Of a stretch of 64,000 nucleotides of DNA, positions 4,363 to 63,025 are shown piece after piece; position 1 is the stretch's first letter, and the number at the start of each line of letters is the position of its first letter. The notes under the pieces were generated by a model. The model was not told the DNA's origin, searched no databases, and worked only from the letters and a program-made list of their open reading frames with translations. The DNA lies in the NCBI GenBank assembly GCA_964016885.1, contig OZ024741.1, positions 112,468,001-112,532,000 of the forward strand, in the 5' to 3' direction. Made by a program: the position numbers and the translations under genes. The stretch comes from Eledone cirrhosa. Lineage: Eukaryota.

Positions 4363-5027
4363 TAATCTCTGATTGCAATTAAAACAAACTGCCTAATACA
4401 TCTTCCACAAAACACAGCCATATCTATCTAACTGTCTTCTTTCTGTCTTCATTCATTATATATATTTGATGTACATATATGTTTCGATTCTGATCTTCAC
4501 TGCAACTGATCAATCCTTCAGTCAAAGATGATTATAATGAATTAAGGCTCCAAGCTGCGAAACACGCATTACATGTGATTATGAATAAAATATGTTAAAC
4601 TGAACTTCAATCTCTCATGCTTAATATATATATATACATATATATATATATATGTATATGTATGTAATGAAGTAACATAAAATTGGCAGAAACTCAGTAG
4701 CAGAGAGTAGAGTTTGACTCGTTCCTCTTCTCCTTATTACCACTCAATCAACAAATCAATAGACAAACAGATACTCGCATGTGTGTTGTGAAAATAATAA
4801 GACTTTTATTTGCATTTTTTTTGCATCTGTGTTTGTCTAGTCATTTCTTAAACAATATATATATATATATATAATTAATAAATCTGTATTCCAATGTTAC
4901 TAAGTAGTCGCATTGGATGGAATCACCGACGTCGGAGATTGCTCAACGTATAATAAAATGTGTTTTAAAATCCGGAGAAAATATGAAGAAGTTTATGAAA
5001 CGGAAATGCGGGTATAAAGAATTTATT

Positions 5028-5144
5028 AGGTAACAATTGTTTCTATAGTGTATGGGTTACCTATACCTCGCTATTTGTATAATATAAAAATATTATCATA
5101 AATCGTAGGTACACTGTAAGAAAACACACCATGTCGTCAGACCT
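5028..5144 (-). ncRNA. Type-I hammerhead ribozyme motif with expanded stem II
   Basis: AGGU-CUGACGA-c-AUGGUGUG...UACACUAU-a-GAAA-CAAUUG-UU-ACCU: stem I AGGU/ACCU, palindromic stem III AACAAUUGUU, GUU cleavage triplet. Confidence 0.7.
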
Positions 5145-5556: not shown

Positions 5557-7410
5557 TTACATGCATTTAAAAAAAGAAAAAGTCGTTTTCAAACGATGGT
5601 TACAGTAAAGTGAACGTTCAATTTTGCTGTTCAAAAGTTTGTTTTCCGACGTTAAAATGCAGTATATCTCCATATTGCATAATTTACAGAATCGATGATT
5701 TTGCTTATATGCATGCGCAGATTTAATAATTTGCCAATCAAGGGAGAATGCTTGATTGTTCCTCCGAAGCTGCCAGGCTTTATCGGCGAGGGTTGTTACG
5801 GAGCGCATTTTCTCATGCCTGATCGAAGATCGATGTTGGTATAGGCGAGCTTTGAAAGATGTTGCGGTACATCCGACGTAATACCATTTGTTGGTTCCAG
5901 AATTTATTGTACATCGGTAGACAATATTGCGTTCTAGGCACTGGTTATTCAGTGGGCACGTACCTGGTTTGGTGCAGTTACAGTTATTTTTATGTTTTGC
6001 AGTAGTATCCTTGATAGTTTGGTGGGGATGTAGTTGCGTGTTAGTGCGTTGTATGTCGCTATGCTGGTGCGCTGTGTCATTAGGGATGTACTTATTTAGT
6101 ATTGTTGAGTTGAGTTTTTAATTAGTTGTTCTATGTTAGGTGCAGTGGAGTATGAGAGTCTAATGGTGCGCGAGTTTAAGATTTTATAGTATTTATGTGA
6201 AGTTGTAAAGTGTTTATTGATCAGTGTATAGAATTGTGAGATAATCTTAGTGCTAATAGAAATATTGTACACGGGGTTATACCATATGTACTCTCTACGT
6301 CTGACTCTATTTGTTGGTTTGCACTTATTAGTATGCCTATTGATGTGTCTGTGTGGTGCAATACTAGTTTGACTTAGATGTGGTTTATTCATAGTACCTA
6401 TGCGGTTATCATCTAGATATTCTATTTTCTCGCAGTAACCAGCTTTTCTAAGTGCGTCATTATAATATTCAGCATGCTCGTTGAAGGTCAGCAAATTAGA
6501 GGACAGTCGGGAGATCTTTATGGATATATTTTTAAGGATAGATTTAATAATGGAATGGGGATGGTTCGATTTTACATTAACGTACTTGAGATTTTCATTA
6601 AGTTTGTGAAATGGCTCTATATTACCGTTATTAAGGTTGAAGGTGACATCCAAGAAGTTGACCACCTTAAGATTGTGTTCGAAGGTAATATTAAGCCCTA
6701 GTTCTAAGAAAAGTTTCCTAATGTTTTTACGTCGCCTTTCTAGGTTTTGTTTGTTCATATTCTTGACTAATAGAAGTGTATCATCGCGGTAGATTCCACC
6801 GTGGAGGTCAGTAAATTCGCTCTGGAGTCTGTGGGCTATATAGATTCCAACCAGATCCGTAACCTCCGACGAATCATTAGAACCCATCGTAATGTCAAAT
6901 TCCGAGGGTCTATCTCTGCGGACCCAATAACTATTTTCAAAATGAACTACTGTGCGTCTAGCTTCAAGTATAATATTAATTTCCTCGTTTATGAGGTCCG
7001 AGTTAGCCTTAGCGAATGAGAGGGCCTTAGGCAGGGTTTCAGGTGAAATAGAGGAATAGTATTCATCTATATCGAATTGAATAAAAGAAGATTTGTTTTT
7101 GTCACTGATGTTATTGAACCATCTTATTGCCTGTTGAGTATTACCCCATAATTTAATATCTACCTTAGCCTTAACTTGGGGGATAATACGATCTAATATG
7201 TACTTACTGATTCTACCTATATCAGACTTTGAAGGACATATTAATCTAATTTTAGGGTTAGTATCGAAGTTAGCCTTATGGTCCTTCAGATTAAAAGTCG
7301 GTGTACTGGAGAAAGGGGTACCGTTCTGTCGTCGATTTTCAGTTTCTTAACAATATCACATGCTGCGTTATTAATGTTGGTTAGTGTAGTTGCGTTTGTT
7401 TTTTTGTACT
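5557..7410 (-). pseudogene. Disrupted PLE RT plus GIY-YIG endonuclease ORF
   Basis: ORF pieces 6096-6887 and 5557-5808 extend upstream without ATG; frameshifts near 7320 and 6110. Confidence 0.85.
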
Positions 7411-7567
7411 TCTGACGACATGGTGTGTTTTCTTACAGTGTACCTACGATTTATGATAATATTTTTATATTATACAAATAGCGAGGTATAGGTAACCCAT
7501 ACACTATAGAAACAATTGTTACCTAATAAATTCTTTATACCCGCATTTCCGTTTCATAAACTTCTTC
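7411..7567 (+). repeat. Inverted pseudo-LTR copy carrying the HHR without the 5' arm of stem I
   Basis: Reverse complement of 4985-5141. Confidence 0.92.
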
Positions 7568-11203: not shown

Positions 11204-11212
11204 CTAGTTATA

Positions 11213-12557
11213 TAAAGTTCTAGTTTGTAGGAAAGAAAATAAGGCGCCGGTCCCTTCCGGGAAATGGCCATGCTCAGTGTGTAGGAAAGGCGTAGGTAGA
11301 AACTCCATTTTATGCCCCAAATGCAAAGTATGGGTGCATAAAAGATGTAGTGGGATCACAGGTAAGCTAACTAAGAACACAGATTTTACATGTGGCCGGT
11401 GCTCTGGTGCAATAAGTAGCAGCAAGTGCCCACAAAATACTAGCTCTTTCAACTGCGCAGAGGGTTCTATAGAAATAGTGGACAGCTTCTGTTACCTGGG
11501 TGACAAAATCAGCAGTGGGGGAGGGTGCTCCGAAAGTACAGTAGCTAGAGTCAGAACTGGATGGAAAAAGTTCAGAGAGCTTATACCACTATTAGCCGCT
11601 AAAGGGTTCTCCCTAAAAATGAAAGGCAGGTTGTATGATGCCTGCATACGAACAGGAATGTTGCATGGCAGTGAGACCTGGGCATTGTGTGCAGAGGATA
11701 TACGCAGACTAGAGAGGAACGAAGCTTGCATGCTCCGCTGGATGTGTAATAGTAATATACGCGAATGGCAAACCATAAACGAACTAAGGAAAAAATTAGA
11801 AATAAGAGGGATCAGATGTTGTTTACTCGAGAGAAGGCTAAGTTGGTATGGTCACGTGATGCGCATGAAAGACGACAGCTGTATAGCAAAGTGCAGGGCA
11901 ATAAAGATAGACGGTAGCCACGGAGTAGGCAGACCCAGAAAAACCTGGGACGAGCTGATAAATTCCGACCTCACACACTTACACCTCTCCAAGACAATGT
12001 CACTGGACCGAGAGCTTTGGTGGTACTCAGTAATAGAGAAGACCCGCGTTACCTAAATACAAAGTAAAACCTACTACAGTCAGTAGGCATCTCTAACAAA
12101 ATACACCCCCGTCCCACCACCCCCACCCCATCCACACTGCCCCTTTCAATGTAAAGTTATGTTGGTGCCACAGAATCCAGGCCGAAACAAATGAGATCGT
12201 GTAGGTGTCACGACAAAAAAACACAGTCCACGCTGTAATGTGACCGTGTAGGCAACGGGGTAAAAACCTCCCAGTCCCACACTGTAAATGTGGTTGGTGT
12301 TAGGAAGGGCATCCAGCTGTAGAAAACCTGCCAGACAGTCCACGCTGTAATGTGGCCGTGTAGGCAACACGGTAAAAACCTCCCAGCCCCACACTGTAAA
12401 TGTGGTTGGTGTTAGGAAGGGCATCCAACTGTAGAAAACCCGCCAGACAGTCCTATGCGAGCAAGACAACCACTCTTGCCTCAAGTGGGAAAACTCCCGT
12501 CCAAACCCATGCAAGCATGGAACACGGACGTTAAACGATGATGATGATGATGATGAT
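11213..12557 (+). mobile_element. RTE LINE copy 2, 5'-truncated, with about 113 bp duplicated in the 3' UTR
   Basis: ORF 11277-12056 nearly identical to the C-terminal half of 420-2081; (GAT)n tail. Confidence 0.95.
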
Positions 12558-16100: not shown

Positions 16101-16281
16101 ACACCCTGAATATATATATATATAAATATATGTGTGTATATGTGTGTATGCATTTGTGTATGTTTGTGTGTATATATATATATATATATATGCAAAAGTT
16201 CTATTTAAAATTATTGGGATACAACAAGTAAATATTTTATAACTGATATAAAACACTCGACAAGTTTTTGGAGTAGATATA

Positions 16282-16385
16282 CGATATTAAATAAATGGAA
16301 ACTATATTTATAAAACCATATTTATTTCATTATACATATTTCAGGGATACCAAATTAAAATATGGTATGCCTTCATTTAATATCG
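16282..16385 (-). mobile_element. Tiny PLE-terminus-like element with truncated HHR and inverted tip
   Basis: Homologous to 57208-57300; retains AUGA-stem II-GAAA-UAUGUA-UA; ends CGATATTAAAT / ATTTAATATCG. Confidence 0.7.
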
Positions 16386-16421
16386 TATATATATATATAT
16401 AATGCATACACACACATACAC

Positions 16422-46532: not shown

Positions 46533-46578
<46 letters not shown>

Positions 46579-46628
46579 ATTAATACAAGATCGGAGGCCA
46601 TATTTAGTTGATTCAGGTTTATTTAAAA

Positions 46629-46690
46629 CTCTGTTATACATATTTCACTGAGGACTATCAGTTATGATAGCCTGAGCTCTTCAGACAAAG
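46629..46690 (-). ncRNA. Type-I hammerhead ribozyme motif (solo)
   Basis: CUUUGU-CUGAAGA-GCUCAGG CUAUCA(UAAC)UGAUAG U CCUCAGU-GAAA-UAUGUA-UA-ACAGAG. Confidence 0.85.
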
Positions 46691-47409
46691 CCTAAAATAA
46701 AGCTCCTAAGAAACCTCTAATTTGGGAAAATCCAATAATTTCCCCCCAAAAAGATTTTTTTCCATGATACACAGGGCTGGCCGAATGCATGGTGTTGTTT
46801 CTTCAACGGGCGGCCCCTGTATAATCTCAAGAATTTTGGTGGAAGTGTTGGTCAGTTTAGGAAGTAACTAAAACAGCTGGTAGCCCTTCTTCCTCCCTGC
46901 TCTATTAGTAGCTGTTGTAGTAGTAGTGACATCCATCTCCTTCCAACCCTTTATTGTCCACAGGTCTGCAACAACTCTGAATATTATAACCGATACCAAA
47001 AATTAACCACATAAAAAATTAAACTAATTAATTAAGAACAAAAGGAAAGGTTAACCCCATACTTTAGCAGAGAGCGAAAGAGAGCTTCGGACAGAAACAT
47101 GAACTTTCCTCTCTAAATATGTATGTAAAAACTAATAATTTTTCTTCTCCATTTTATTATTTATCATATAAATATGCAATTTAGCTGCACTTTACACTTC
47201 CATCGTTGAAAAGCATATAATGCTGAAACCATTACCACGATTAAATGCGGAAATCCCCACTTTATAAATAAATGTTTTGATATTATACTGAAAAGATCCC
47301 TCCACCATTTTCTACTGTATTTTTTTCCTTTTTACTATTTGTATATATATATATCAACTTGTGTGTCACATTTATACATTCCATATATATATACACATAC
47401 AGGAAAAAA

Positions 47410-47545
47410 AGTAGAGTGGGTAATAGGAAAAGAGTCAGGACCCCAACGGCTGAGCTGCAGCTGTTTTGACAGCCAGATCTAGCTCTTGAAAAGGCTGGAG
47501 CTCAGCCGTCAGGGTCCTGACTCTTTACCTATTACCCACTCTACT
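47410..47545. repeat. GC-balanced fold-back element (MITE-like hairpin)
   Basis: AGTAGAGTGGGTAATAGG..AGAGTCAGGACCC..CGGCTGAGCT and its reverse complement; arms about 50 bp. Confidence 0.85.
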
Positions 47546-49511
47546 ACCCTAAGGATTGAGTACTCTGATGCATTATGGTCCACCTGGTATCTTACCACAC
47601 CTTCTTTGTACATATACATATGAATAAACACACACACACATATCATGTATAATTTAGATATTTTTTACCCAAATATTTTTAGAGAAGAGCCTCAGGAGGT
47701 GTAAGTTCGGCCCTGACCTCAGTGCATGACAGCCCATCTAATCAATGTAAACATGAAAAATAGGCATTAATCAGTGATGATGGTGATATATATTTAGTAC
47801 ACTGCATATTCATTTACAGTCATAAAAATATCTGTGAGTTGGTCAAATATTTTTTGCTGTTATATCAAGAGAATATACAGTCCTATTTCATTTTATCTGA
47901 TTATTGAACAATTTCATAGAAGAGATTCTTCAAACTGCATGATATGGTGCCAGGAAGTTCTGTTATTCCTATTGGGGCATACTGTTTCCAATGAACTATT
48001 GGCTTTTTAGAAGATACTACTAATTTTGATTGGCGCCATGTAGTCATCAATCCAGCCATTCATCCATCTATCCATACATGCATTCAGTTTGCAATTCTCT
48101 GATGGTTTTCTTAAATCTAATGAGGTGTGTTAAAGAAACGAATGCGTGCTTGTGCACTCTACATGTATATTTAAGTGTGAATCTATGCATGTGTGTGTAT
48201 GCAGGCATGCACATCTATTTGTGTGCTGTATGTGTGTATGTATGCATGTGCGTGTGTTGTATAAGTATGTGTATATATGTAAAGTATTTATTCATGCATG
48301 TGCATGTATATATGTGTGTGTGCATGTGTAGGTGGGTTTGTATGCATGCATGTTTGTGGATGTATATGCATATGTAATGTTTGTAGTATATATATGTATG
48401 CATGAATGTGTGTGTATATGTATGTGTCTTTATGTATTTGCGTGGAAATTTATGTATATATGTATGTATTCATATGTGCATATCTATGCATATGTGGGGA
48501 TACTTATGTACACAGGTCGATTTGAATGTATGTATGTGTGTGAATGTGTAAGAACCATGTGAAAAGTAAATATACTCATGCGCACATAAATGTATGTAAA
48601 AGCTGAATGGTTAAGAGAGAGAGAGACCTAATGAGGGAAATGAGGCAGAAAAGAGACAGAGAAAGACAGGCAGACAGACAGATAGGGCAGAGAAACAGAA
48701 AGATAGAGAACCCCATAAACACACATATATACGAATTAAAACACACTCACAGAAACACACACATAGGAAGTACCCCCCACCCGCATCCACACATATGGTT
48801 GCATATATCTACTGGTGATCCAATGTTCTTTCTTCTGTTTTTGTCTCTTCTCTTCCTCTCATCCTTGATCTAATTATAGATAGATAGATAGTTTGAATGA
48901 TATCAAATCCTATCAAGCTAAACACACCATCCTTCTCTATCAAATAATTATATCACTGAAGTTAAGAGCTACATGTAAACCCTTTATTGTTTTTCTAAAT
49001 ACTTTTTAGCTCTTTTACTGGTTTCAATCATTAAACTGCAGCCATGTTAGGGCACCACCTTAAAGGGATTTAGTTGATCATATCGACCCCAGTGCTTACT
49101 TTTTTTTCAAGTCTGATGCTTATTGAATTGATTTGTTTTTGTTGAACAACTAAGTTCCAGGACATAAACACAGAATGGTGAATACATCCACACACCTATA
49201 CATATCCTCCTCATCATCATCACCCCCACCACCACTACCACTATCATTTACCATCTATTTTTGATGCTTGCATGGGTTAGACGAGTTTTTATTCTATGAG
49301 ACTAACCAGGTCAAGTAAGCATGTCTTGCTCAAACATCTGTTTGTGGCAAGATTTTCTACTGCTAGATGCCCTTCCTAATTCTAACTACACAAAAACATG
49401 TACTGCAAGCTTTTCTTGTGTCACCACCATAATGGCTTTACAGGGTAGACTGGTTGCATTTTTTCATGGCACCAGGATGACCACCTAATAGGCTTGACTG
49501 GGTGAACTTTA

Positions 49512-49663
49512 TGTAAAGCTGCCAATATACAGGTTAACTATAAAATAGTTTAATAAATCACACAATTAACCCTTAAAGACAGAAGAAGTCATATACAGCT
49601 GTCTACTTTTTTTTCTATCGTCAATTTATTCAACTATAGTTAACCTGTTTTGAGACAGCTTTA
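49512..49663. repeat. Degenerate inverted-repeat (MITE-like) element
   Basis: GTAAAGCTG..ACAGGTTAACTATA / TATAGTTAACCTGT..CAGCTTTAC. Confidence 0.55.
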
Positions 49664-49805
49664 CAAAAGGTAATGTACATTCAAATTTGCCTTACACTTT
49701 GTAAATGATTAATTTTGCTTATATATATATATTTATATATACAAGCAAATTATAAACGTAAACATCTAAGTATGTTTTTGAAACGGTGCGCGAGTTTGAA
49801 ATTAG

Positions 49806-49926
49806 AAATTAGAAATTATAAGCTTTCACCGTATTTTAGACTAAAGAAATTTCTAGCCTGATAGTGGGGTTTATAACCCTCGGAGAAAAATGGAAAAATA
49901 CGGTGAAAGCTTATAATTTCTAATTT
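49806..49926. repeat. Small element with perfect 32-bp inverted termini
   Basis: 49806-49837 is the exact reverse complement of 49895-49926; abuts (TA)n. Confidence 0.85.
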
Positions 49927-49927
49927 A

Positions 49928-49979
<52 letters not shown>

Positions 49980-50238
49980 CTTGGAGAATGTCTGCAGACA
50001 ATACAACACTCTCTTTTCACTTTTCAGTTTTTGAACATGCTATTCTCTTTTCCCTATCTTCTATGATGAGTATGGGTTCTTCGTAACCCTGTTTTGAAAT
50101 TCAGTTGATGTTATCTGATGAGACAATCCCGTCTTGCATCAAAAATGGATGATGGAGCTGGGCATTGAAATTTGTATAATCATTTCACTGAATTTAAATT
50201 TACAGCATATCCTCCAGTCCGGCCTTCTGTTATTGTTT

Positions 50239-50308
<70 letters not shown>

Positions 50309-50842
50309 GGTATGGCTTAGTGGTTAGGGTATTTGGCTCATAGTCGTAAGGTGGTGGCAAGACACTTCATTTCATACTCAGGTGCCAAAAATGAGTTGTA
50401 CATGTAATTCGAAGGGCCAAACGTATCACCCTCTGTGTCACATTGAATCTCCCTGAGAACTAGGTTAAAGGTACTTGGTCTGGGAAATTCTCAGTCACTT
50501 GCAGGTTAATTTCATGAACAGGTTGTTCTGTTGATCATATCAAGTGGAACTCTTGCCACTTTGACTGATGTCTGCCAGTTAACTACACAACAATCCCAGC
50601 ACCTCATACATTCAATGTTATATTTTGTCAGCCAGTCTTTGTAGTTTCAGGTATTAATGAAGAAACAGTGGAAAATATAAAGTTAGTGAAGGACAAGAGT
50701 TGTTAGAATATGAGACAGTTGATGTATGATGTGCAGGAAAGGAGAATGAAATGAATGTAGACAAGAATGATTGTAGGAGAGGAGCATAGCATCAATATAA
50801 ATCACTCTGAGAAAGTAACAATGACATAAACTCAAGCCCTAC

Positions 50843-50961
50843 CTGTCATATCCAAGAACTGCATAAGTTTGATGCATTGAAGATCAGGGGTTTGAGTCAA
50901 AAGGTTGGATACTGAACTCAGTATTAAGTTATCAAAATACAAAAGCTTTAGGGTAAGTTTT
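50843..50961 (-). CDS. Candidate 119-nt exon of unknown host gene
   Basis: TTTTCAG acceptor, CAG/GTAGGG donor, open frame KLTLKLLYFDNLILSSVSNLLTQTPDLQCIKLMQFLDMT; no recognisable homology. Confidence 0.22.
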
Positions 50962-51526
50962 CTGAAAATTGGATTTTGTGGCATTACGTATCTATTGTGT
51001 GTATTTGCTATGTTTAGAATCAGTACACTGTATCCTGTAGGCCTTAAAAGGCTGGTTGCCAGAAAGAGCATTTGGCTGTAAAACATTAACTAAAAGCCCT
51101 CCAGGCTAACCCCTACACTAGCAGACAACACTTAAAAAATATATGTATGCATACATTACAACATCGTCATTGTCTTACATATGCTTCTCAATGCTTGCAT
51201 GGGTTGGATGTGTCTTTTCTAGTACAGCTTCCCATCACTCATTGCACTCTTTCATCATCTCTGTGAGCCTCAGCAATTTGGCTCTACTCTCACAACTTCT
51301 ACTTAGGTCTTTCTTGGTCTTCCACTGCAGTTTCCTTCCGCTGGGAATTCTCAATACTTTGTCACCCAACAATAATCATCCATTTGCATCACATGGTCAC
51401 ACTGGTGCAGTTGTCTCTCTTGTTCACTACTTTTGATTTCCTATATACCAAGCTTTTCTCTCACTTCTATGCTTTGTCATTCATGCATGAATGTTATATA
51501 AAGCTGAATAATATTATATATTCCCT

Positions 51527-51838
51527 TCATCATTTCATCATCATTTCATTTTATGTCCACTTTTCCCTGCTTGCAAGGGTGGGACGGGAACTGATTCTGG
51601 CTTGATTTCTACAGCTGGATGCCCTTCCTAACACCAACCTCATTTACAGTGAGTGCTGGGTGCTTTTTTGCCGTGGCACCTCCACGACCACTTTGCAGTG
51701 GAATGATTTGGACCCCAGTCCCTATCATCTCATTTCTACAGCTGAGTAAACGGGAGCAATGTGAAATAAAGTGTCTTGCTCAAGGAAACAACACATCACC
51801 CGGTCTAAGAATTGAACTCACAACCTTTCGATTGCAAA
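51527..51838 (-). mobile_element. SINE family A
   Basis: Near-identical to 17884-18233 in reverse orientation. Confidence 0.88.
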
Positions 51839-52373
51839 TCCCTTAATGATTACATAACAAATTATGTAGTTGCTTTTGTTATGGCTTAACATTAAGTTTA
51901 CTCTGATTGAACAAACATAAGTACAAAAGCAATGCAACTAAGACACTTTTGACTTTCTGTCTATCAGTCAGATACTACATCGTCCAATGTATTCCTTTTC
52001 CATCTAAAATTGTAGTGTGTGTCATTTGAAGGAGATTTGCTATTTCTAGCTGGTCAAATGATTTTGTAGCTGGTTTGTTATAAATTATGTTATCAAATTC
52101 TGTGCAACTAATGCAATGGGATTCAGAAAAAATATGTGTCTTGTCCTTGTGTAAGAAAATATCATGAATTTCCAAGAACTAAAGTCAGAAATCATTTGCA
52201 ATAGTTTGATAGAAATAGAGCTAACTCCTATCATCAACATAATGTAATCAATTCTAAATATGAATATGGAAGAATATCTTGGGGAAGGAATTTAGATTTT
52301 AGGTGCTTCTTTGGTTAGAAAAAAAAACAAAACTATCACACCATATGGTAATGTTACAGCTCACGTAGGTTTA

Positions 52374-54905
52374 GTTAGTCTCTTACAAAGTTGAATCTTA
52401 TAGTTGGTTTCTTGGGTGTTTTAATGAGAGACACCAGTTATATCATGAAAATGACTCTTTATATTTCGTTAGTCTCTTACAAAGTTGAATCTTATAGTTG
52501 GTTTCTTGGGTGTTTTAATGAGAGACACCAGTTATATCATGAAAATGACTCTTTATATTTCGTTAGTCTCTTACAAAGCTGAATCTTATAGTTGGTTTCT
52601 TGGGTGTTTTAATGAGAGACACCAGTTATATCATGAAAATGACTCTTTATATTTCGTTAGTCTCTTACAAAGCTGAATCTTATAGTTGGTTTCTTGGGTG
52701 TTTTAATGAGAGACACCAGTTATATCATGAAAATGACTCTTTATATTTCGTTAGTCTCTTACAAAGTTGAATCTTATAGTTGGTTTCTTGGGTGTTTTAA
52801 TGAGAGACACCAGTTATATCATGAAAATGACTCTTTATATTTCGTTAGTCTCTTACAAAGCTGAATCTTATAGTTGGTTTCTTGGGTGTTTTAATGAGAG
52901 ACACCAGTTATATCATGAAAATGACTCTTTATATTTCGTTAGTCTCTTACAAAGTTGAATCTTATAGTTGGTTTCTTGGGTGTTTTAATGAGAGACACCA
53001 GTTATATCATGAAAATGACTCTTTATATTTCGTTAGTCTCTTACAAAGTTGAATCTTATAGTTGGTTTCTTGGGTGTTTTAATGAGAGACACCAGTTATA
53101 TCATGAAAATGACTCTTTATATTTCGTTAGTCTCTTACAAAGCTGAATCTTATAGTTGGTTTCTTGGGTGTTTTAATGAGAGACACCAGTTATATCATGA
53201 AAATGACTCTTTATATTTCGTTAGTCTCTTACAAAGCTGAATCTTATAGTTGGTTTCTTGGGTGTTTTAATGAGAGACACCAGTTATATCATGAAAATGA
53301 CTCTTTATATTTCGTTAGTCTCTTACAAAGTTGAATCTTATAGTTGGTTTCTTGGGTGTTTTAATGAGAGACACCAGTTATATCATGAAAATGACTCTTT
53401 ATATTTCGTTAGTCTCTTACAAAGCTGAATCTTATAGTTGGTTTCTTGGGTGTTTTAATGAGAGACACCAGTTATATCATGAAAATGACTCTTTATATTT
53501 CGTTAGTCTCTTACAAAGCTGAATCTTATAGTTGGTTTCTTGGGTGTTTTAATGAGAGACACCAGTTATATCATGAAAATGACTCTTTATATTTCGTTAG
53601 TCTCTTACAAAGTTGAATCTTATAGTTGGTTTCTTGGGTGTTTTAATGAGACACCAGTTATATCATGAAAATGACTTTTTATATTTCGTTAGTCTCTTAC
53701 AAAGCTGAATCTTATAGTTGGTTTCTTGGGTGTTTTAATGAGAGACACCAGTTATATCATGAAAATGACTCTTTATATTTCGTTAGTCTCTTACAAAGTT
53801 GAATCTTATAGTTGGTTTCATGGGTGTTTTAATGAGAGACACCAGTTATATCATGAAAATGACTCTTTATATTTCGTTAGTCTCTTACAAAGTTGAATCT
53901 TATAGTTGGTTTCTTGGGTGTTTTAATGAGAGACACCAGTTATATCATGAAAATGACTCTTTATATTTCGTTAGTCTCTTACAAAGCTGAATCTTATAGT
54001 TGGTTTCTTGGGTGTTTTAATGAGAGACACCAGTTATATCATGAAAATGACTCTTTATATTTCGTTAGTCTCTTACAAAGCTGAATCTTATAGTTGGTTT
54101 CTTGGGTGTTTTAATGAGAGACACCAGTTATATCATGAAAATGACTCTTTATATTTCGTTAGTCTCTTACAAAGTTGAATCTTATAGTTGGTTTCTTGGG
54201 TGTTTTAATGAGACACCAGTTATATCATGAAAATGACTTTTTATATTTCGTTAGTCTCTTACAAAGCTGAATCTTACAGTTGGTTTCTTGGGTGTTTTAA
54301 TGAGAGACACCAGTTATATCATGAAAATGACTCTTTATATTTCGTTAGTCTCTTACAAAGTTGAATCTTATAGTTGGTTTCTTGGGTGTTTTAATGAGAG
54401 ACACCAGTTATATCATGAAAATGACTCTTTATATTTCGTTAGTCTCTTACAAAGCTGAATCTTATAGTTGGTTTCTTGGGTGTTTTAATGAGAGACACCA
54501 GTTATATCATGAAAATGACTCTTTATATTTCGTTAGTCTCTTACAAAGTTGAATCTTATAGTTGGTTTCTTGGGTGTTTTAATGAGAGACACCAGTTATA
54601 TCATGAAAATGACTCTTTATATTTCGTTAGTCTCTTACAAAGCTGAATCTTATAGTTGGTTTCTTGGGTGTTTTAATGAGACACCAGTTATATCATGAAA
54701 ATGACTCTTTATATTTCGTTAGTCTCTTACAAAGCTGAATCTTATAGTTGGTTTCTTGGGTGTTTTAATGAGAGACACCAGTTATATCATGAAAATGACT
54801 CTTTATATTTCGTTAGTCTCTTACAAAGCTGAATCTTATAGTTGGTTTCTTGGGTGTTTTAATGAGAGACACCAGTTATATCATGAAAATGACTCTTTAT
54901 ATTTC
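52374..54905. repeat. 94-bp tandem minisatellite, 27 copies
   Basis: Unit GTTAGTCTCTTACAAAG[T/C]TGAATCTTATAGTTGG...GACTCTTTATATTTC; three units are 92 bp. Confidence 0.97.
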
Positions 54906-55826
54906 CTAGGAGGATTAGCAGTATTGGTAGAGCATCAGCCACCATGTTTTGCAATATAGAGTAATGGCCCTTAACATTTTGAATTCAAATCCCGCTGAAG
55001 TTAGCTTTGCCTTTCATCCTTACGGGGTTGATAAAATGTAATGCACTGGGGGTGATTTAATCGACTTTCCCCTCCCCTTCAAATTGCTGGCCTTGTGCCT
55101 AAAGTAGAAATAATCATTGTTATTGTTATTAGGGCAGTGGATTGGCAGTATCGGTAGAGAGTCAGACACCATGCTTTGCAGCATAGATTTACCGTCTTTT
55201 ACGTTCTGAGTTCAAATCCCACCATGGTTAGCTTTGCCTTTCATCCTTACAGGGTCAATAAAATAAAGTACCAGTGTCGATTTAATTGACTTTCTCCTCT
55301 CCCCAAATTGCTGGGCTTGTGCCTATAGTTTAAATCATTATTACCATTATTAGAAGGGCGGTGGATTGACAGTATTGGTAGAGGGTCGGACGCCATGCTT
55401 TGGTGGATTGACAGAATTGTTAGAGCATCAGGCAAAATGCGCCGTGGTATTTATTTAAGACTCTTGATTTCAAATCGAATGTAAAGAGCCATAAAGAAAT
55501 AAATCAATCCAAGGTCAATTTTGCCTTGGTTCGATAAAACAAAATATTAATCAAGTATTTGGATTGATTTAATAAACTTTGCCCTTCCTCCAAATTTGCT
55601 GACCTTGTGCCTAAATCAGGAATCATTATTATTGCTATGGATTGGCAGTATCGGTAGAGGGTCGGACGCCATGCTTTGACGCATAGAGTTACGGCCCTTG
55701 CCATTCTGAGTTCAAATTCCGCCGAGGTTAACTTTGCCTTTCATCCTTACGAGGTCGATAAAATAAAGTACCAGTAATGTACTGGGTATTTGCTGGCCTA
55801 ATGCCAAAAGTAGAAACAATTATTAT
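54906..55826 (+). mobile_element. Head-to-tail array of about five family-B SINE copies
   Basis: Repeated GGATTGGCAGTATCGGTAGAG..GAGTTCAAATCC..GCCTTTCATCCTTAC..TTGTGCCTA..ATTATT. Confidence 0.85.
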
Positions 55827-55941
55827 TGCTATCATCTAGCTGTTCTATATTATGTGTTCTGTACATATTAGTTCCATTACACTGTCACTTTCTCTGTTCA
55901 TCTATATTTTTTGCCATAAAACACACGCACACTCACACAGG

Positions 55942-55998
<57 letters not shown>

Positions 55999-56333
55999 TC
56001 TCTATCTCTCTATGTGTGTATCTCTATCACCCGGACACACTTTATCACTTCGTCTCTCTCTCTCTTCCTCTCTCTCTCCCCCTTTCTTTCACACATACAA
56101 CACAACATGCTATCTCTTTCTCATTCATTGTTTCACTTCTTTTCACACTGTGTAGTGAAAAGCAAAAATAAAATAGAAACGAAAGCAAACAAAACATTTT
56201 TATGTATAGTTTCTTCTTTATTTATTATTTTTCTTTGTGTACTTTATATCAGTTCTTAAATATTTCTTAAATTATATTTTTTCTATTTTTTCTTTTAGGT
56301 AAACAATGATTAACTTCTGACAATCTTCGTTAC

Positions 56334-56411
<78 letters not shown>

Positions 56412-56503
56412 GTCTGTATGCATATGGTATGGTGTCTGATGTTCTCTACCCTGGAGACAGTCAGTCCTGCAATAAGTTTCCTTTTTTCAATACAGTAAGT
56501 CTG

Positions 56504-56540
<37 letters not shown>

Positions 56541-57207
56541 GACAAAAATAATAATTAAAAAGTCAAAATATGAAGAAAAAAAAATTATTAATAAAAAAAA
56601 TGTTTTCTCTCATCATTGATGTTATCGTTAATGTTGATATAAGGGATGGTGTTGTGGGACGGTGTATTCTGTTTGCTATATATCATCAAGCAGTAGTTTA
56701 TGATTATTTTTATAGATGTTTTCTATTGTTTCTCTGTTTTATTTTATTTGTGTTGTTTATACATTTGTGCATGTATGTCTGCATGACTACTGGAGTATGT
56801 GTGCTTATATGTAATGTATTTTGTTCGATATATCTGAGAAAATGTATATAAATGAGTGGTGTGTATGCATGTGAGTGTGTATGTAAATATATAATCGGTG
56901 TATTTCTTTCAACATATTTGAGAAAATCTGTACGGATGTATATATATATACATAAATAAGGGATTGTATTCAATGTGTCTGAGACATTGTCTATATTGGC
57001 CAGAAATATGTATTTGTGCTTGTGTTTATGAAGAAATAAAGAAAATAAAGCTTCTTTCCTTCTATTGTTGTATAATTTAATATGTATTCATAGAATGGGA
57101 ACACAAGTGAAACCCCTTAAAGTAAAATTGATTATATAACAAAATATTTTATATATATGCATATATATATATATATGTGTGTATATATATGCATATATAT
57201 ATATATA

Positions 57208-57459
57208 CAATATATTAATAAATTGAAACTATATTTATAAAACCATATTTATTTTATTATACATATTTCAAGGGCAACAAGGCAAATTATGGTGCGCTTT
57301 CATCAGATAAAATACAGATTTGTTTTATAAATAAATATTGACATACCCGGAAAAAGACAACCTTAACGGTTGGAGCTTCCCTGACTTGGTTGCCCTTGAA
57401 ATATGTATAATAAAATAAATATGATTTTATAAATATAGTTTCCATTTATTAATATATTG
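57208..57459. mobile_element. ORF-less fold-back mini-element built from an HHR-bearing PLE-like terminus
   Basis: 71-bp inverted arms 57208-57278 and 57389-57459 with 2 mismatches; complete HHR on the minus strand. Confidence 0.8.
57250..57314 (-). ncRNA. Type-I hammerhead ribozyme motif
   Basis: UAUUUUAU-CUGAUGA-AAGCGCA...UGCCCUU-GAAA-UAUGUA-UA-AUAAAAUA; 8-bp stem I, canonical core, AUA triplet. Confidence 0.88.
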
Positions 57460-57472
57460 TGTATTTACTCCA

Positions 57473-57540
<68 letters not shown>

Positions 57541-59425
57541 CAAGAGGACCAAGAACAGATCCCTGTGGTACACCAGATGACATCTCATATGGTGAAGAAT
57601 GCTGTCCTAGAACCGTGACTACTTCCTTTCGGCTGAGAATGAAGGATTTCAGCCAGTCGAAAAGATCATCCCTCACACCCATTGCAGAAAGTTTTGCCAT
57701 AAGTCTTTTGTGTGGCACAGAATTAAAAGCCTTAGCAAAGTCAAGGTAAACAACATCCACCCATGAGCCGCTGTCAGTGATCCGGGTGATGTCCTCAAGG
57801 AACTCGATAAGCTGATCACAGCAGCTGGAGTTAGGGATAAATCCAAACTGTGAGGGCCGGATGAGGCTGTGAGAGCTCCAGAAGTTCCAAAGTGTTTCTC
57901 TGACACAGGATTCCATCAGTTTGGCCATACAGCTAGTAAGACTGACTGGACGATAGTTGACAGGTGACATGCGGTTGCCCTTTTTGAACAGGGGAATGAC
58001 ACTGGCAGTTTTCCACTGCTCCGGAGTAGCACCATTGCTGAGACAGTATTGAAAGAAAAAAGAAAGCTGGCGCAAAAGGAAATCCCCGCCACGTTTGAGA
58101 AGCAGGTATGTCACACCATCAAGACCAGGGGAGGCATAGTTGCGCTTATTCTTAAGGTGACGTCGCAACATTGCAGGTGTAAATTCCATAGTTGTTATGG
58201 AATTTGATGGTGGAGATGGTACATTCTGGTTTTCAACAGTAAAAATACTTGCATAGCACTCAGCAATGAGTTCTGCGCATTCCTTGGGATCGTCAGTGAT
58301 CTGGCTTGTGTGGGGATTGCGAAGAGAACCAACTGGAGAGTGAGGTCTCTGCTTTGAATGAACATATTTCCAGAACACCTTACTGTCAGGATTGGTTGCG
58401 ATGCACTGTTCAAATTCAAGCACTGCCTTCTTTGTCACTTGCTTGAGATGGTTAGAAGATTTATTCCGCTTTTTTCTGTTGGCATCTGATCTATGCAGTT
58501 TATATTCCCGTTCAGCGTTCCGACGTTCTTTCCTGGCAAGTCGGACCGCTGAAGTTTCCCAGATTGCACTTTTGGGGTGGTTATTTTTCCGCTTCCGTGG
58601 CACTGATGCTGCACACGCTATCCATATTGAGTCCAGGATGCTCTGGAGTATAGAGTTCACATCTCCAGAGTTATACATCTCATGCCAGTTTGGGCGCTGT
58701 AGCTCAGTGCAGTACAAGTTCCAATCCGCCCTCTTCCAATCAAAGCAAGCAGATTGGAGATGGCTCTGGTTTTTGTTGCTGCCCTCAAGTGCCAGATTGG
58801 CAATGATCATAGCATGATCAGAGTCGCCTAGAGGTTCCTCAGTAGTACAACTGATAACCACTTCAGGAGTAGTGGTGAAGATCAGGTCCAAAGTGTTGTC
58901 ACCTCTTGTTGGAGAGGTGACTACTTGTGACCAGTTTGAGTCCAGCACTAGTTCAAGGAAATCGTTTGCACCCTGTGGCCAACGAAAGGTTTCCCAATCG
59001 ATCTCAGGATGATTGAAGTCACCTGCAATAAACACATAAGTGGCTGTTTTCTTGGCAGCAACTCTGAGGATATCGCAAAGCTGTGTGTCCTGATGGTAGT
59101 TTGGGGGGCGATAAACAACACCAAGCAGAAGTGTTGACATAGTCATACGTATGTCACAGAAAAAAACTTCTTCCTGTGATTCGTTCAAATCAACGCAAGG
59201 AATTACCGAAAAGTTTGAACGAACGTAGACCATCACACCACCACCACGGCGGTTAATGCGGTCCTTGCGGAAAAGGTTGTACCCAGTAATGGTGAAAACC
59301 CCATCACAGAGTAAGGAATGTGCCCATGTTTCCATGACTGTGATGAAGTCAGGGTCGATGCTTCTGACGTAGGATTCGAACAGATGTATCTTGTTGCATA
59401 AACTGCGAGCATTTAAGGACAACAA
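57541..59425 (-). CDS. LINE ORF2 N-terminal part (APE endonuclease plus RT up to GVPQGSVLGPL)
   Basis: NARSL, ETW, GGGV, VYRPP, GDFN, TLDLIFT, SDH, NYRPVSLTS, QFGF, YLDFAKAF, GVPQGSVLGPL; uninterrupted. Confidence 0.9.
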
Positions 59426-59481
59426 TTTGTACCCTGCTCGCAGTCTATGATGGTGTGTAGAGGGTGGCAGGTTGTTCTGGT

Positions 59482-59786
59482 TTAGTTTCCCAGAGTTGTA
59501 GCAGTTTTTACATTGCCAGTTATTGTGGGTAGATCACACTCAGACCAGCTGGTATCTCTCTTCCACGTTTCACCAGCCTTGACAAACCTCCAGACCTGCC
59601 CATCATCACTCAGACTGAAACTTTCATCTTGTGCTGAGTTCCGATTCAAGGAAGCTGCAGTACGTAGTTTTGGACGTACATGGGGTGGTAGGCCTGGGCG
59701 TGTTCGGAAGGTAATCCGATTTTCACGCCCAGCTTTAGCAGAGGCCAGATGATATGAGGTTGCCTCTGCGGGGTCCGAGAAAGACA
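59482..59786 (-). CDS. Probable LINE ORF1 C-terminal fragment
   Basis: Open frame ending ..TLGN* just upstream of ORF2 in the same orientation. Confidence 0.55.
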
Positions 59787-60653
59787 GTGGCATATATTAA
59801 TGACATAGATGCCAACTTACAGAATGCCACGGTACTAAAATATGCAGATGACATCAAGCTGTACCTTGAAATCAAAAGGACTGATCCTGAAATTTACAAT
59901 TCTTTCCTACAATCAGACCTGGACACAATGCAGCAATGGATCACAGACTGGCAACTGAAGCTGGCTGTGGACAAGTGTACCACCATGCATTTTGGAAGGA
60001 AAAATCCAGCGTCCACATACTCTCTCCACAACACTGACATCAAAAAGTCCTCTTGTGAACGTGACCTGGGCATTAATGTCAGCAACGATTTGCGTTGGAC
60101 AAAGCATGTCTCTAAGATTGTCAAGAAGGCCGAGGGTGTCTTGGCATCACTCAGCAAGACCTTTGTTAGCCGCTCTCCAGCCATCTATTTAAAACTGTAT
60201 ACAGCTATGGTGCGACCACACTTGGAATTCGCATCATCAGTCTGGAACCCCTATCTTGCTCGGAACATTGACCTCCTGGAAACTGTTCAGAGACGTGCAA
60301 CCAAGCGCATACCCTCCATCAGACACCTACCATACTCTGAACGCCTTGCTTCCCTGGGTATGGATTCATTGAAGCTCCGACGTCTGGCAATGGACTTGGT
60401 GAATACCCACAAAGTTTTTAACCATCTCGCCAACTGCAACCCTGAGCGCCTCTTTGATCTCCATGTGTCTAACACACGTGGACATGCCTACAAGATAAGA
60501 AAACAGCACAGCTCCCATGACTTTCGCAGACATTTCTTCACGCTCAGAGTTGCTGAAGCATGGAACAAACTGCCTGCGTCAATTGTTAGCTGCCGAGACA
60601 CTGCATCCTTTAAGACACTCATGCTTCCCGAAATACGCCAAAACTACACCTGA
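59787..60653 (+). CDS. LINE ORF2 C-terminal part (RT YADD and thumb)
   Basis: VAYINDI, KYADDIKL, ERDLGI, LYTAMVRPHLEF, VWNP, VQRRATK, TRGH..K, FFTLRVAEAWNKLP. Confidence 0.9.
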   Translation: MAYINDIDANLQNATVLKYADDIKLYLEIKRTDPEIYNSFLQSDLDTMQQWITDWQLKLAVDKCTTMHFGRKNPASTYSLHNTDIKKSSCERDLGINVSNDLRWTKHVSKIVKKAEGVLASLSKTFVSRSPAIYLKLYTAMVRPHLEFASSVWNPYLARNIDLLETVQRRATKRIPSIRHLPYSERLASLGMDSLKLRRLAMDLVNTHKVFNHLANCNPERLFDLHVSNTRGHAYKIRKQHSSHDFRRHFFTLRVAEAWNKLPASIVSCRDTASFKTLMLPEIRQNYT

Positions 60654-60986: not shown

Positions 60987-61119
60987 ATACTTTGGGAGGG
61001 TCATGTTGCCAATAAGAAACACACGCACCAGTTGCTTTCACTTCAATTTATTATTATAATAAATTTATAAATTTCTGGTTGGTTGGTTGGTTCCACAACC
61101 AGATAGTTATTTATATATT

Positions 61120-61162
61120 GTCATAGTTCTTTCGTCACACACTCTGTGACCTCTTCAGTGAC
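61120..61162 (-). ncRNA. Minimal type-I hammerhead ribozyme (3' pseudo-LTR)
   Basis: GUCA-CUGAAGA-G-GUCACA(GAGUG)UGUGAC-GAAA-GAAC-UA-UGAC. Confidence 0.88.
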
Positions 61163-61363
61163 TGGGGATTCCTTTCTTTGTTTCTGTGCCTCTCCTTTGT
61201 CCTGTCCTACGCCATTTTGTTTCTGTGTGTGTGTTGTGTGCTCAGTCTGCGCATGCGCCACATCCAGGTGTCTGTGTGTGTTTGTGTTCATTTATTTATT
61301 TGTTTATTTACATGTTACTGGTTGGTTGTTTGTTCTATGTGTGTGTGTGTTTTCATTTTGTCC

Positions 61364-62809
61364 TTAATTGTAAGTTGTGATGTTGCTGTTCCACTCATAT
61401 TTTCTATTTAATTTTGGTTGTAATTCTTTTATGTTTATTGCCTCTGTAATTTGTCTAAACATTGCGTCTTTTCTGTGTGTAGATTCTATTTTTATTTCTA
61501 TGTTCTCTAATTTACCCTTGTGTTCTATTTTAGCATGTTGGTAGAGTACAGATGATTCTTTACTATCTTGAAGGTCTCGCCAGTGTTCGTTTATCCGTTC
61601 CCCTACACTACGAGCTGTCTCACCTATGTACACTATATTTTTGTCTCTACATTGTCCTTCAGTACATCTTATGCTATACACTACATTTCTAGTTTTACAG
61701 TTAATATGGGGGCTTATTTTACAGGTTATACATTTCTTATCTATACATGAGGGTCTTTGGAACGGGTATGTCTTGCTAATAAGTGTTTTTACGGAGGTAC
61801 CTGGTCTTTCTACTATCTTAATATTGAGTTTATGTTTATTTAGGGCCCTTCTAAATTTGTAAGCTAATTCACCTCTAGGGGTTGTATCGATGAACATTAC
61901 ACTCTGGTATTTATTGCTATCATACCATGAGTTTATTCTATTAGCCTTGTTCCTAGTTCTTTCTATACTATTCCAAAATTTGCTCCTATACAAGGGGCAG
62001 GTCCCATTTATGTCATGATTTACCATTTTTTCCCATTTGGTTCTGGCTCCTCTATACACTCTGATTTTATCTCTCTGATTGTAGCCAGAGAACTGCATAC
62101 GGTGGATGAAGTGTTGTATGTGTCTCTCTAGTTCTTCGGGGTTGCACATGCGGGACACGTTTCTCATCACCCGTACCAAATCCGCAATCAGTATGTTGAT
62201 TTTGGTATGGTCCGAAACGGCCGAGTTTCGGTGGATCAGATGTTTGGAAGTCATGGGTTTGGCATAATGGGAATGGAGGATTTGTTTTTTGTTATTAATG
62301 GTATCTAACCAGAGCTCTGTGTCTAGTACAGGTAATCGATGGTTGGGGTGTTTACTTGGGTAGTCTATAGTAACTCTAATGCTCCGGTGGATGGAGTTAG
62401 CTATTTACTGGATGCTTTCCATTGTGTTTTTCTCTAGTTCCTGACTGTTCTCTAGTGGGGGTGTCTTAACTACGATCTTTATATCATCAACGTAGCGGGA
62501 GTACATTATCAGGGTTAAGGGGTCTTCTAATTGTTCTTTAAGCTTAAGTTTAAGTCTACTGTCCCACCATACCATGAATAAGTTAGCTATGTCGCCTGCA
62601 ATGCTAATACCAATGGCTGCTCCTTCCTCTTGGGCATATGTTTTTCCATTAAATTTGAACATATGTTCCTTAAGGGTTAGTTTTATGCTGGCGCCTACCG
62701 CATGTGCAATCATTTTCTTCAGTTCATCGTGGTTTTCGGGTGTCCGTATGACTCTTGTCCACCCGTTCCATCTATCTGTGTGGGTTTTCTTGGCCATTGA
62801 GGTTATGGT
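61364..62809 (-). pseudogene. PLE RT plus GIY-YIG ORF with a single in-frame TAA
   Basis: ORFs 62405-62959 and 61364-62254 are in the same frame, separated only by the stop at 62405-62407. Confidence 0.85.
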
Positions 62810-62982
62810 AGGCGACATAGCTAACTTATTCATGGTATGGTGGGACAGTAGACTAGAACATAAACACACACAGACACCCGGATGTGGCGCATGCGCAGAC
62901 TGAGCACACAACACACACACAGAAACAAAATGGCGTAGGACAGAACAAAGGAGAGGCACAGAAACAAAGAAAGGAATCCCCA

Positions 62983-63025
62983 GTCACTGAAGAGGTCACA
63001 GAGTGTGTGACGAAAGAACTATGAC
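62983..63025 (+). ncRNA. Minimal type-I hammerhead ribozyme (inverted pseudo-LTR copy)
   Basis: Identical motif on the opposite strand. Confidence 0.88.

Follow-up and report, generated by a model that had tools for sequence, protein, structure and literature searches.

Why should two Cs face each other, nominally unpaired, at the same step of a ribozyme stem whose neighbouring pairs differ from copy to copy? The question arises from a stretch of 64,000 nucleotides (nt) of the Eledone cirrhosa genome (assembly GCA_964016885.1, contig OZ024741.1, positions 112,468,001 to 112,532,000 of the forward strand; hereafter the window), in which an earlier note had pointed to three hammerhead-like loci on the minus strand, 46629-46690, 57250-57314 and the truncated 16325-16375, that share GAAA-UAUGUA-UA and carry a C-C mismatch (C.C) at position 4 of stem II. 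The sequence confirmed all three loci, with stem II pairs 1-3, the mismatch and the resumed pairing at each of them and the stem I pairings at the two complete ones (Table 1). Judged by their sequence, the motifs are short-stem-III type I hammerheads at the 3′ ends (pseudo-long terminal repeats, pLTRs) of Hydra-clade Penelope-like retroelements, a placement that is only probable for 46629-46690. The ribozyme class is one already known, a retroelement end of a described kind that the earlier note, right about the folds, did not recognise, and the position-4 mismatch appears to be the novelty within it. Hammerheads in Penelope-like elements cut poorly alone, one has been shown to need the element's protein, and minimal variants have no recognised tertiary contact.

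The window loci and the element that carries them

The three loci, all present as claimed, amount to about two independent examples, since 57250-57314 is closely related to 16325-16375, with 84% identity along 104 nt. Two further members on the plus strand had escaped the earlier note, namely a decayed one at 50115-50178 and an inverted copy at 57386-57472, which together with 57250-57314 gives the inverted-repeat layout typical for Penelope-like insertions. The truncated locus is an inversion junction: where the CUGA box should be, the motif instead joins 11 nt of the 3′ end of its own element in inverted orientation. The insertion holding it spans about 16190-16387, between (TA)n runs. At 46629-46690, the surrounding stub has AATAAA 13 nt past the predicted cut and its 3′ end at a (TA)n run, and the 6-bp stem I is partly copy-specific, the commonest pairs of its family giving 4 bp. 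The window copies are stubs without open reading frames (ORFs), probably relics. Taken singly, they fold no better than shuffled sequences (z of −0.94, −0.48 and −1.70), and an Rfam scan of the window returned no hammerhead match at E values up to 5, a scan insensitive to this class, as it also missed an ordinary minimal hammerhead at 61118-61166. The evidence for the motif is comparative, not thermodynamic. Contig data over 57212-57352 (three runs) showed no variant of at least 3% at the two C positions, whereas 16 other sites vary; such data bear on the sequence and not on expression or cutting. Four contigs from a second organism, at a depth of 2-4, were too thin to count.

Both complete loci have the core CUGANGA, GAAA, U16.1 and H17 (H being C, U or A), and the same core was found downstream of ORFs reached by protein homology. 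Four complete units (L225, L221, L300 and L351) consist of a motif, an ORF and a second motif in the same direction 4,034, 3,857, 3,676 and 3,334 nt further on, respectively, mostly with an inverted copy at the 5′ side. Their ORF, for a reverse transcriptase (RT) with a GIY-YIG nuclease, starts about 180 nt after the predicted cut, and a long 3′ untranslated region (UTR) precedes the second motif. Likewise, seven of 11 inverted pairs 2-4 kb apart enclose an RT and nuclease ORF of at least 150 codons. When enclosure, or at least two copies at one distance, is counted as a tie, eight lineages are linked to an ORF (F1, F1c, F2, F3b, F6, F9, F11 and F12), including those of the loci 16325-16375 and 57250-57314. 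ORFs beside F7 (L224), F13 (L334), L104 and F5 (L108, L521) proved to be mere neighbours, outside the inverted pair or in other branches, and were omitted from the final tree.

A protein search returned 232 relatives, the best 120 of them at 33-44% identity; among homologues with a name, those of Argonauta hians, Hydra vulgaris and Watersipora come closest, and a Pfam search assigned no family to the Hydra ORFs. Six long copies showed DKT (6/6), YRDD (5/6), CxCX5C (4/6), CxxC-E (5/6) and CxH (6/6), the misses being mutated copies, as well as an N-terminal RWR in four, with neither RWK nor RWR in two F12 copies. In DKT, CxCX5C, the CxxC/CxH nuclease motifs and (TA)n targets, the elements described here agree with the published definition of the Hydra clade (Craig et al. 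2021, PMC8557442). In 181 of 297 motifs, (TA)4 occurs within 120 nt downstream, and 150 of these 181 runs begin 45-64 nt after the cut site. AATAAA follows the predicted cut by 1-14 nt in 19 of the 20 lineages compared below (in the window, for example, at 57258-57253 on the minus strand). In these lineages, a cut would leave the ORF on one piece and what may be a polyadenylation signal on the other.

Non-LTR retrozymes, whose short, tandemly repeated units each contain a single canonical type I hammerhead, were considered as carriers and rejected: the copies here lie scattered through the genome, alone or in inverted arrangement, and are linked to coding elements, with one local duplication (L106).

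Abundance and position 4 across copies and lineages

Searching the 3.0-Gb assembly, which is rich in TA microsatellites, for CUGANGA-N8-38-GAAA-UAUGUA-UA, the genome-wide scan that the earlier note had proposed, gave 31,861 matches (the AUAUGUAU class) against 13 in a reversed control. The same frame with UAUAUA (the AUAUAUAU class) matched 48,677 times (control 163), and with U-B-N-N-V-A 32,008 times (control 210); in the latter, AUGCGCAU and AUGAUCAU predominate, the first 30 loci comprising 16 of a UGCGCA family and 14 of UGAUCA or a close variant. Pattern matches sum to about 112,000 genome-wide, or about one motif per 27 kb, a figure in which double or chance matches make up a few per cent and which joins searches with slightly different spacer ranges. 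Both stems were present in 79/90 matches from this genome compared with 4/120 viral-contig matches, which we put down to chance given how loose the stem test was, and none of 16 metagenome matches outside the genome had stems. Stem III, called invariant at first, is not: the genome holds at least four high-copy palindromes, and UAUGUA is not even the commonest form. What is kept is the self-complementarity of the eight bases from A15.1 to U16.1, via compensated changes; AUAUGUAU, AUAUAUAU, AUGCGCAU, AUGAUCAU and AUACGUAU each form 8/8 pairs with themselves.

At position 4, about 27,000 copies (85%) of the UAUGUA class are C.C, 3,070 have the 5′ C with another partner and 1,747 lack the 5′ C. 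Among 100 listed of the 3,070, about 65 (counted by eye) fall into a C.A subfamily, which corresponds to roughly 2,000 copies. Among 100 listed of the 1,747, we saw what appear to be scattered mutants, deletions and internal re-matches, with a U.C variant at seven sites that may represent a small subfamily. C.C also accounts for 96 of the first 100 matches listed for the UAUAUA class, and a wider search found 45,589 C.C matches; the UGCGCA family has C.U and the UGAUCA family C.C. A regular C-G pair was matched 393 times over the UAURYA classes, and the listed examples are variants of families that normally have C.C; C-G copies are rare, scattered mutants. A non-C at the 5′ side was found 11,819 times (control 2,613) when stem III could be any U....A sequence, and among 100 listed there were decayed copies and unrelated repeats and, after follow-up, no paired family. 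One apparent family with G-C at position 4 was a misreading by the pattern, the motif being a hammerhead of another kind whose stem II is long. Finally, C.C combined with a 6-nt stem III not starting with U was matched 1,071 times, with no paired family among 100 listed and a reversed control (6,820) that was unusable.

The lineage comparison contains one natural copy each of 20 lineages, hand-picked among 340 motif instances from loci in which exceptions were deliberately over-represented; the core served to anchor the columns, with no alignment fitted, and the shuffles ignore the relatedness of lineages. The 5′ base at position 4 is C in all 20, and its 3′ partner is C in 17, U in two (F12 among them), A in one (F3b) and G in none. 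Free variation of this position in a larger alignment, which the earlier note had named as the result that would speak against it, was not seen; constraint at position 4 stood, and strict C-C did not, high-copy C-A and C-U lineages being present. Around the mismatch, stem II pairs 2, 3, 5, 6 and 7 are paired in 20, 20, 19, 20 and 19 lineages (shuffle means 14.5, 8.9, 15.1, 13.6 and 12.8), each with 3-4 standard pair types except position 5, which has two; position 1, paired in 18/20, is not above shuffles (p = 0.08). Stem I pairs 1-4 are formed in 20, 19, 20 and 19 lineages, with pairs 1, 2 and 4 exceeding the shuffles and pair 3 not. In the register used, 82% of stem II is paired, compared with 30-44% when it is slid, and alternative registers, including one with an unpaired base between A9 and pair 10.1, were rejected for this far worse pairing. 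The covariation of stems I, II and III bears out, in the active lineages, the suggestion that the structure is under selection.

Loops come in at least eight different lengths across lineages and are unalignable. Among ORF-linked lineages, protein identity in the nuclease domains is 38-44% for F6 or F11 against the rest (about 135 aligned residues), 45-58% for F12, F3b and F9 among themselves and against F1 and F2, and 69-84% among F1, F1c and F2. By parsimony, C.C would be the old state and C.U and C.A derived. The case for selection on position 4 is that, in an AT-rich setting, two nominally unpaired Cs appear to have outlasted both changes of the flanking pairs and turnover of the loops. 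Alternatively, C.C might be an inherited accident, handed down from one ancestor with C-to-G changes rare in the element's mutation spectrum and too little time elapsed. The lineages do probably share one ancestor, the 3′ changes to U and to A are common mutation types in an AT-rich genome, and mismatch-free sister families do well. Yet paired neighbours have changed repeatedly on both sides, loops no longer align and proteins are down to about 40% identity, while the two Cs stayed C in 20/20 and 17/20 lineages, and we consider an accident decidedly unlikely; inheritance alone would not explain the persistence of the C.

A search by eye for a conserved G able to pair with the 5′ C, in the flanks and core, found none. 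Nor did we find published descriptions of a stem II C-C mismatch in a hammerhead or Penelope context, the consensus of Lünse 2017, the likeliest to show one, being outside this comparison. The mismatch characterises these lineages; it is not a rule that hammerheads of this class follow in general.

Dimer pairing and the possible role of the mismatch

Within a monomer, stem III has only 2 bp. Cofolding, as a prediction, pairs the palindromes, and forced 8-bp duplexes of the stem III octamers gave energies of −2.2 kcal/mol for AUAUGUAU with itself, −3.2 for AUAUAUAU, −10.5 for AUGCGCAU and −7.2 for AUGAUCAU. Cross-family heterodimers, as proposed in the earlier note, work on paper for AUAUGUAU with AUAUAUAU (8/8 pairs, −3.2 kcal/mol), are poor for the AU-rich forms with AUGCGCAU (7 or 6 of 8 pairs; −0.1 and +5.7 kcal/mol) and fail with AUGAUCAU (5/8 pairs; +4.5 and +5.3 kcal/mol). 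On paper, cross-family dimerisation would be possible for about 80,000 AU-rich motifs only, and a second motif on the same transcript would be the simpler partner.

The reading towards which we lean, with somewhat better than even confidence, is that hammerhead folds in Hydra-clade terminal repeats cut weakly as stem-III dimers, likely with help from the element's own protein, and that the conserved unpaired C is likely a specific recognition point and not a random defect. A transcript running from one terminal repeat to the next would contain two motifs, whose 8-nt palindromes could share helix III in a double hammerhead. Complete inserted ends extend 45-64 nt beyond the predicted cut; the template copied into them would therefore have been uncut or re-joined at this point, and cutting would be slow or conditional. 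The C.H mismatch would present its 5′ C to a partner, for which the element's RT-nuclease protein is the first candidate and an RNA contact, stem I or its A-rich 3′ strand, the second. Cutting assisted by dimer and protein might then trim unit-length RNA or remove its tail at some stage.

The inserted ends, which include an intact motif along with the sequence beyond it, would also suit a mismatch that is kept only to weaken stem II, through slower folding or cutting or through RT read-through, leaving uncut template and a C that no partner reads. In the same direction, natural C-G copies are 6-11 kcal/mol more stable than the typical copy in three of five usable comparisons, in which other sites differ too, and one extra stem II pair lowered the activity of another natural hammerhead (PMC3088659). 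For weakening, however, any mismatch at any step would do, yet position and 5′ C are fixed in 20/20 lineages, with stem II hairpin energies anywhere between about −2 and −13.5 kcal/mol; we regard this explanation as unlikely.

A third alternative, which we hold to be very improbable, is that the fold is no longer a ribozyme but a hammerhead-shaped structural signal, acting in packaging or in placing the start of reverse transcription 50-60 nt downstream. The 2-bp monomer stem III and the weak 10.1-11.1 pair in 15/20 lineages would agree with it, as would the low activity of minimal Penelope hammerheads in vitro, which multimers showed but single motifs did not (Cervera and de la Peña 2014, PMC4209133). 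Against this stand the catalytic boxes and the non-G at 17, which persist in families reached by protein homology and not by pattern, and a stem III that stays palindromic via compensated changes, fitting dimeric cutting.

Several observations also weigh against weak, dimeric cutting with a C that is recognised by a partner. Being related, the 20 lineages do not supply independent states, and the eight ORF-linked ones represent one side of a weakly supported branch (75/62) in a protein tree of 18 rows and 301 columns, two rows being under half filled. The 3′ base has changed to U or A in successful lineages without a matching change in stem I, and so points to no partner for the C. Lineage F5, to which 46629-46690 belongs, has no linked ORF in 39 copies examined, its layout of inverted pairs, AATAAA and (TA)n ends being like that of the ORF-linked lineages. 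Related families without the mismatch have spread in the genome, including that of the window element 5557-7346, L385/L510 and L293. Pair 10.1-11.1 is A-U in seven, G-U in six, the canonical G-C in five and U.U in two of the 20 lineages; G10.1-C11.1 is the usual first stem II pair of hammerheads, not an obligatory one. A U.U at this step has been reported for an active natural hammerhead (PMC3088659). No position-4 mismatch occurs in the 26 Hydra rows of File S2 of PMC8557442. For an Anolis element, it has been proposed that the protein binds somewhere in the first 172 nt of its ORF, and mutating the ribozyme left insertion unaffected (Frangieh et al. 2024, PMC11167929), the latter agreeing as well with a purely structural signal.

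A wider proposal, tentative and rather doubtful, would be a hammerhead subtype in which the unpaired C is a handle for the element's own RT-nuclease to recognise and switch on the ribozyme, and the stem III palindromes are a dimerisation code sorting more than 100,000 motifs into compatible and incompatible classes. A single base outside the core, fixed in lineages with protein identities of about 40% and found naturally as C.C, C.U, C.A and, rarely, C-G, offers a precise test of help in folding or recognition, and the natural set of stem III palindromes allows homodimer and heterodimer cutting to be compared directly.

Other hammerheads in the window and the genome, and comparison with known systems

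The hammerhead of the window element 5557-7346 has five further copies of its type and folds better than 197/200 shuffles; long stem II domains such as this one would be missed by the usual descriptors. A second family with a stem II domain of roughly 90 nt (L385:1501-1620, L510-L512) has stem III ACACGUGU and a GUC cut triplet, and occurs in inverted pairs ending at (TA)n. L293 (two copies), L035:14, L382 and L383 are fully paired hammerhead families with stem III ACUAAUUAGU or ACCACUGGU and position 4 paired.

Table 1. Hammerhead motifs, their parts and neighbouring features in the window (positions count from the first base of the window)
Feature	Position	Strand	Details
Type I short-stem-III hammerhead motif, lineage F5	46629-46690	minus	core CUGAAGA 46684-46678; GAAA 46646-46643; predicted cut after A17 at 46635
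Stem II of F5 motif	46677-46647	minus	G-U, C-G, U-A, C.C, A-U, G-C, G-C; C.C at 46674/46650
Old ORF-less stub of F5 repeat carrying the motif 46629-46690	46575-46990	minus	best other copies 83-88% identical
Hammerhead motif, lineage F2	57250-57314	minus	core CUGAUGA 57306-57300; GAAA 57269-57266; predicted cut after A17 at 57258
Stem II of F2 motif	57299-57270	minus	A-U, A-U, G-C, C.C, G-C, C-G, A-U; C.C at 57296/57273
Inverted 5′-truncated copy of F2 element end	57386-57472	plus	3′ arm of stem II, GAAA-UAUGUA-UA, tail
Truncated motif, lineage F1	16325-16375	minus	stem II A-U, G-C, G-C, C.C, A-U, U-A, A-U (mismatch at 16369/16346); stem III present; CUGA box and stem I absent
Decayed member of a further lineage (related to L210)	50115-50178	plus	position 4 A.C; stem III UUUGUA
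Hydra-type Penelope-like element	5557-7346	minus	66,031 first-look genome candidates; inverted ends 4985-5141 / 7411-7567
Hammerhead of 5557-7346 element	5028-5144	minus	90-nt branched stem II domain; stem I AGGU/ACCU; palindromic stem III ACAAUUGU
Penelope-like element, other type	61364-62983	minus	311-bp inverted ends
Ordinary minimal hammerheads of 61364-62983 element	61130-61158; 62987-63015	minus; plus	extra base after A9, G10.1-C11.1, no position-4 mismatch (whole motif 61118-61166)
Tandem array	52370-54905		about 27 copies of a 94-bp unit, 98-99% identical
Remnants of long interspersed nuclear elements (LINEs)	318-2081; 11208-12056	plus; plus	RTE-like RT with PHD finger in two copies
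LINE remnant, endonuclease-RT element	57524-60653	minus	adjoins the 57.3-kb locus

Motifs like those described here, with a diminished palindromic stem III, dimer-dependent cleavage and an association with Penelope-like elements, were reportedly presented by Lünse, Weinberg and Breaker in 2017. Minimal hammerheads in the pLTRs of metazoan Penelope-like elements were described by Cervera and de la Peña (2014, PMC4209133), and the motifs here share with them the type I core, a long stem II, a short stem I, a short palindromic stem III predicted to need a dimer, the location in pLTRs, many solo or inverted copies and many sequence families per genome. In contrast, the consensus given there leaves one base unpaired after A9 and conserves G10.1-C11.1, whereas the motifs of this genome lack the extra base and begin stem II with A-U, G-U, G-C or U.U. 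By our own reading, none of the 56 example rows in Figure S3 of that paper is C.C at position 4, one being U.U and one C.A. The highest vertebrate counts quoted there, about 4,000 and 9,000 per genome, compare with some 112,000 matches here, a motif load more than tenfold higher.

With the Hydra clade as portrayed by Craig et al. (2021, PMC8557442), the carrier elements share DKT, the CxCX5C linker, a C-terminal GIY-YIG-type nuclease with CxxC and CxH, (TA)n targets, a hammerhead near the 3′ end and inverted 5′-truncated copies. They differ in unit length (3.3-4.0 kb with a 0.8-1.9 kb 3′ UTR, compared with generally less than 3 kb), in having RWR instead of RWK in the four copies that show either, and in a stem III that starts with A-U and not A-C.

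The hammerhead of Poseidon-Ac from the green anole did not cut unless the protein of the element was added; most of the template was uncut RNA, on which reverse transcription started at internal sites downstream (Frangieh et al. 2024, PMC11167929). Poseidon-Ac belongs to a different clade, and its ORF starts inside stem II, whereas the ORF here begins downstream of the cut site. Protein assistance, measured for Poseidon-Ac, is what we infer for the motifs here. Both systems have a pLTR hammerhead upstream of the start of reverse transcription, and in both the genomic copies are uncut and end at fixed downstream points (PMC11167929).

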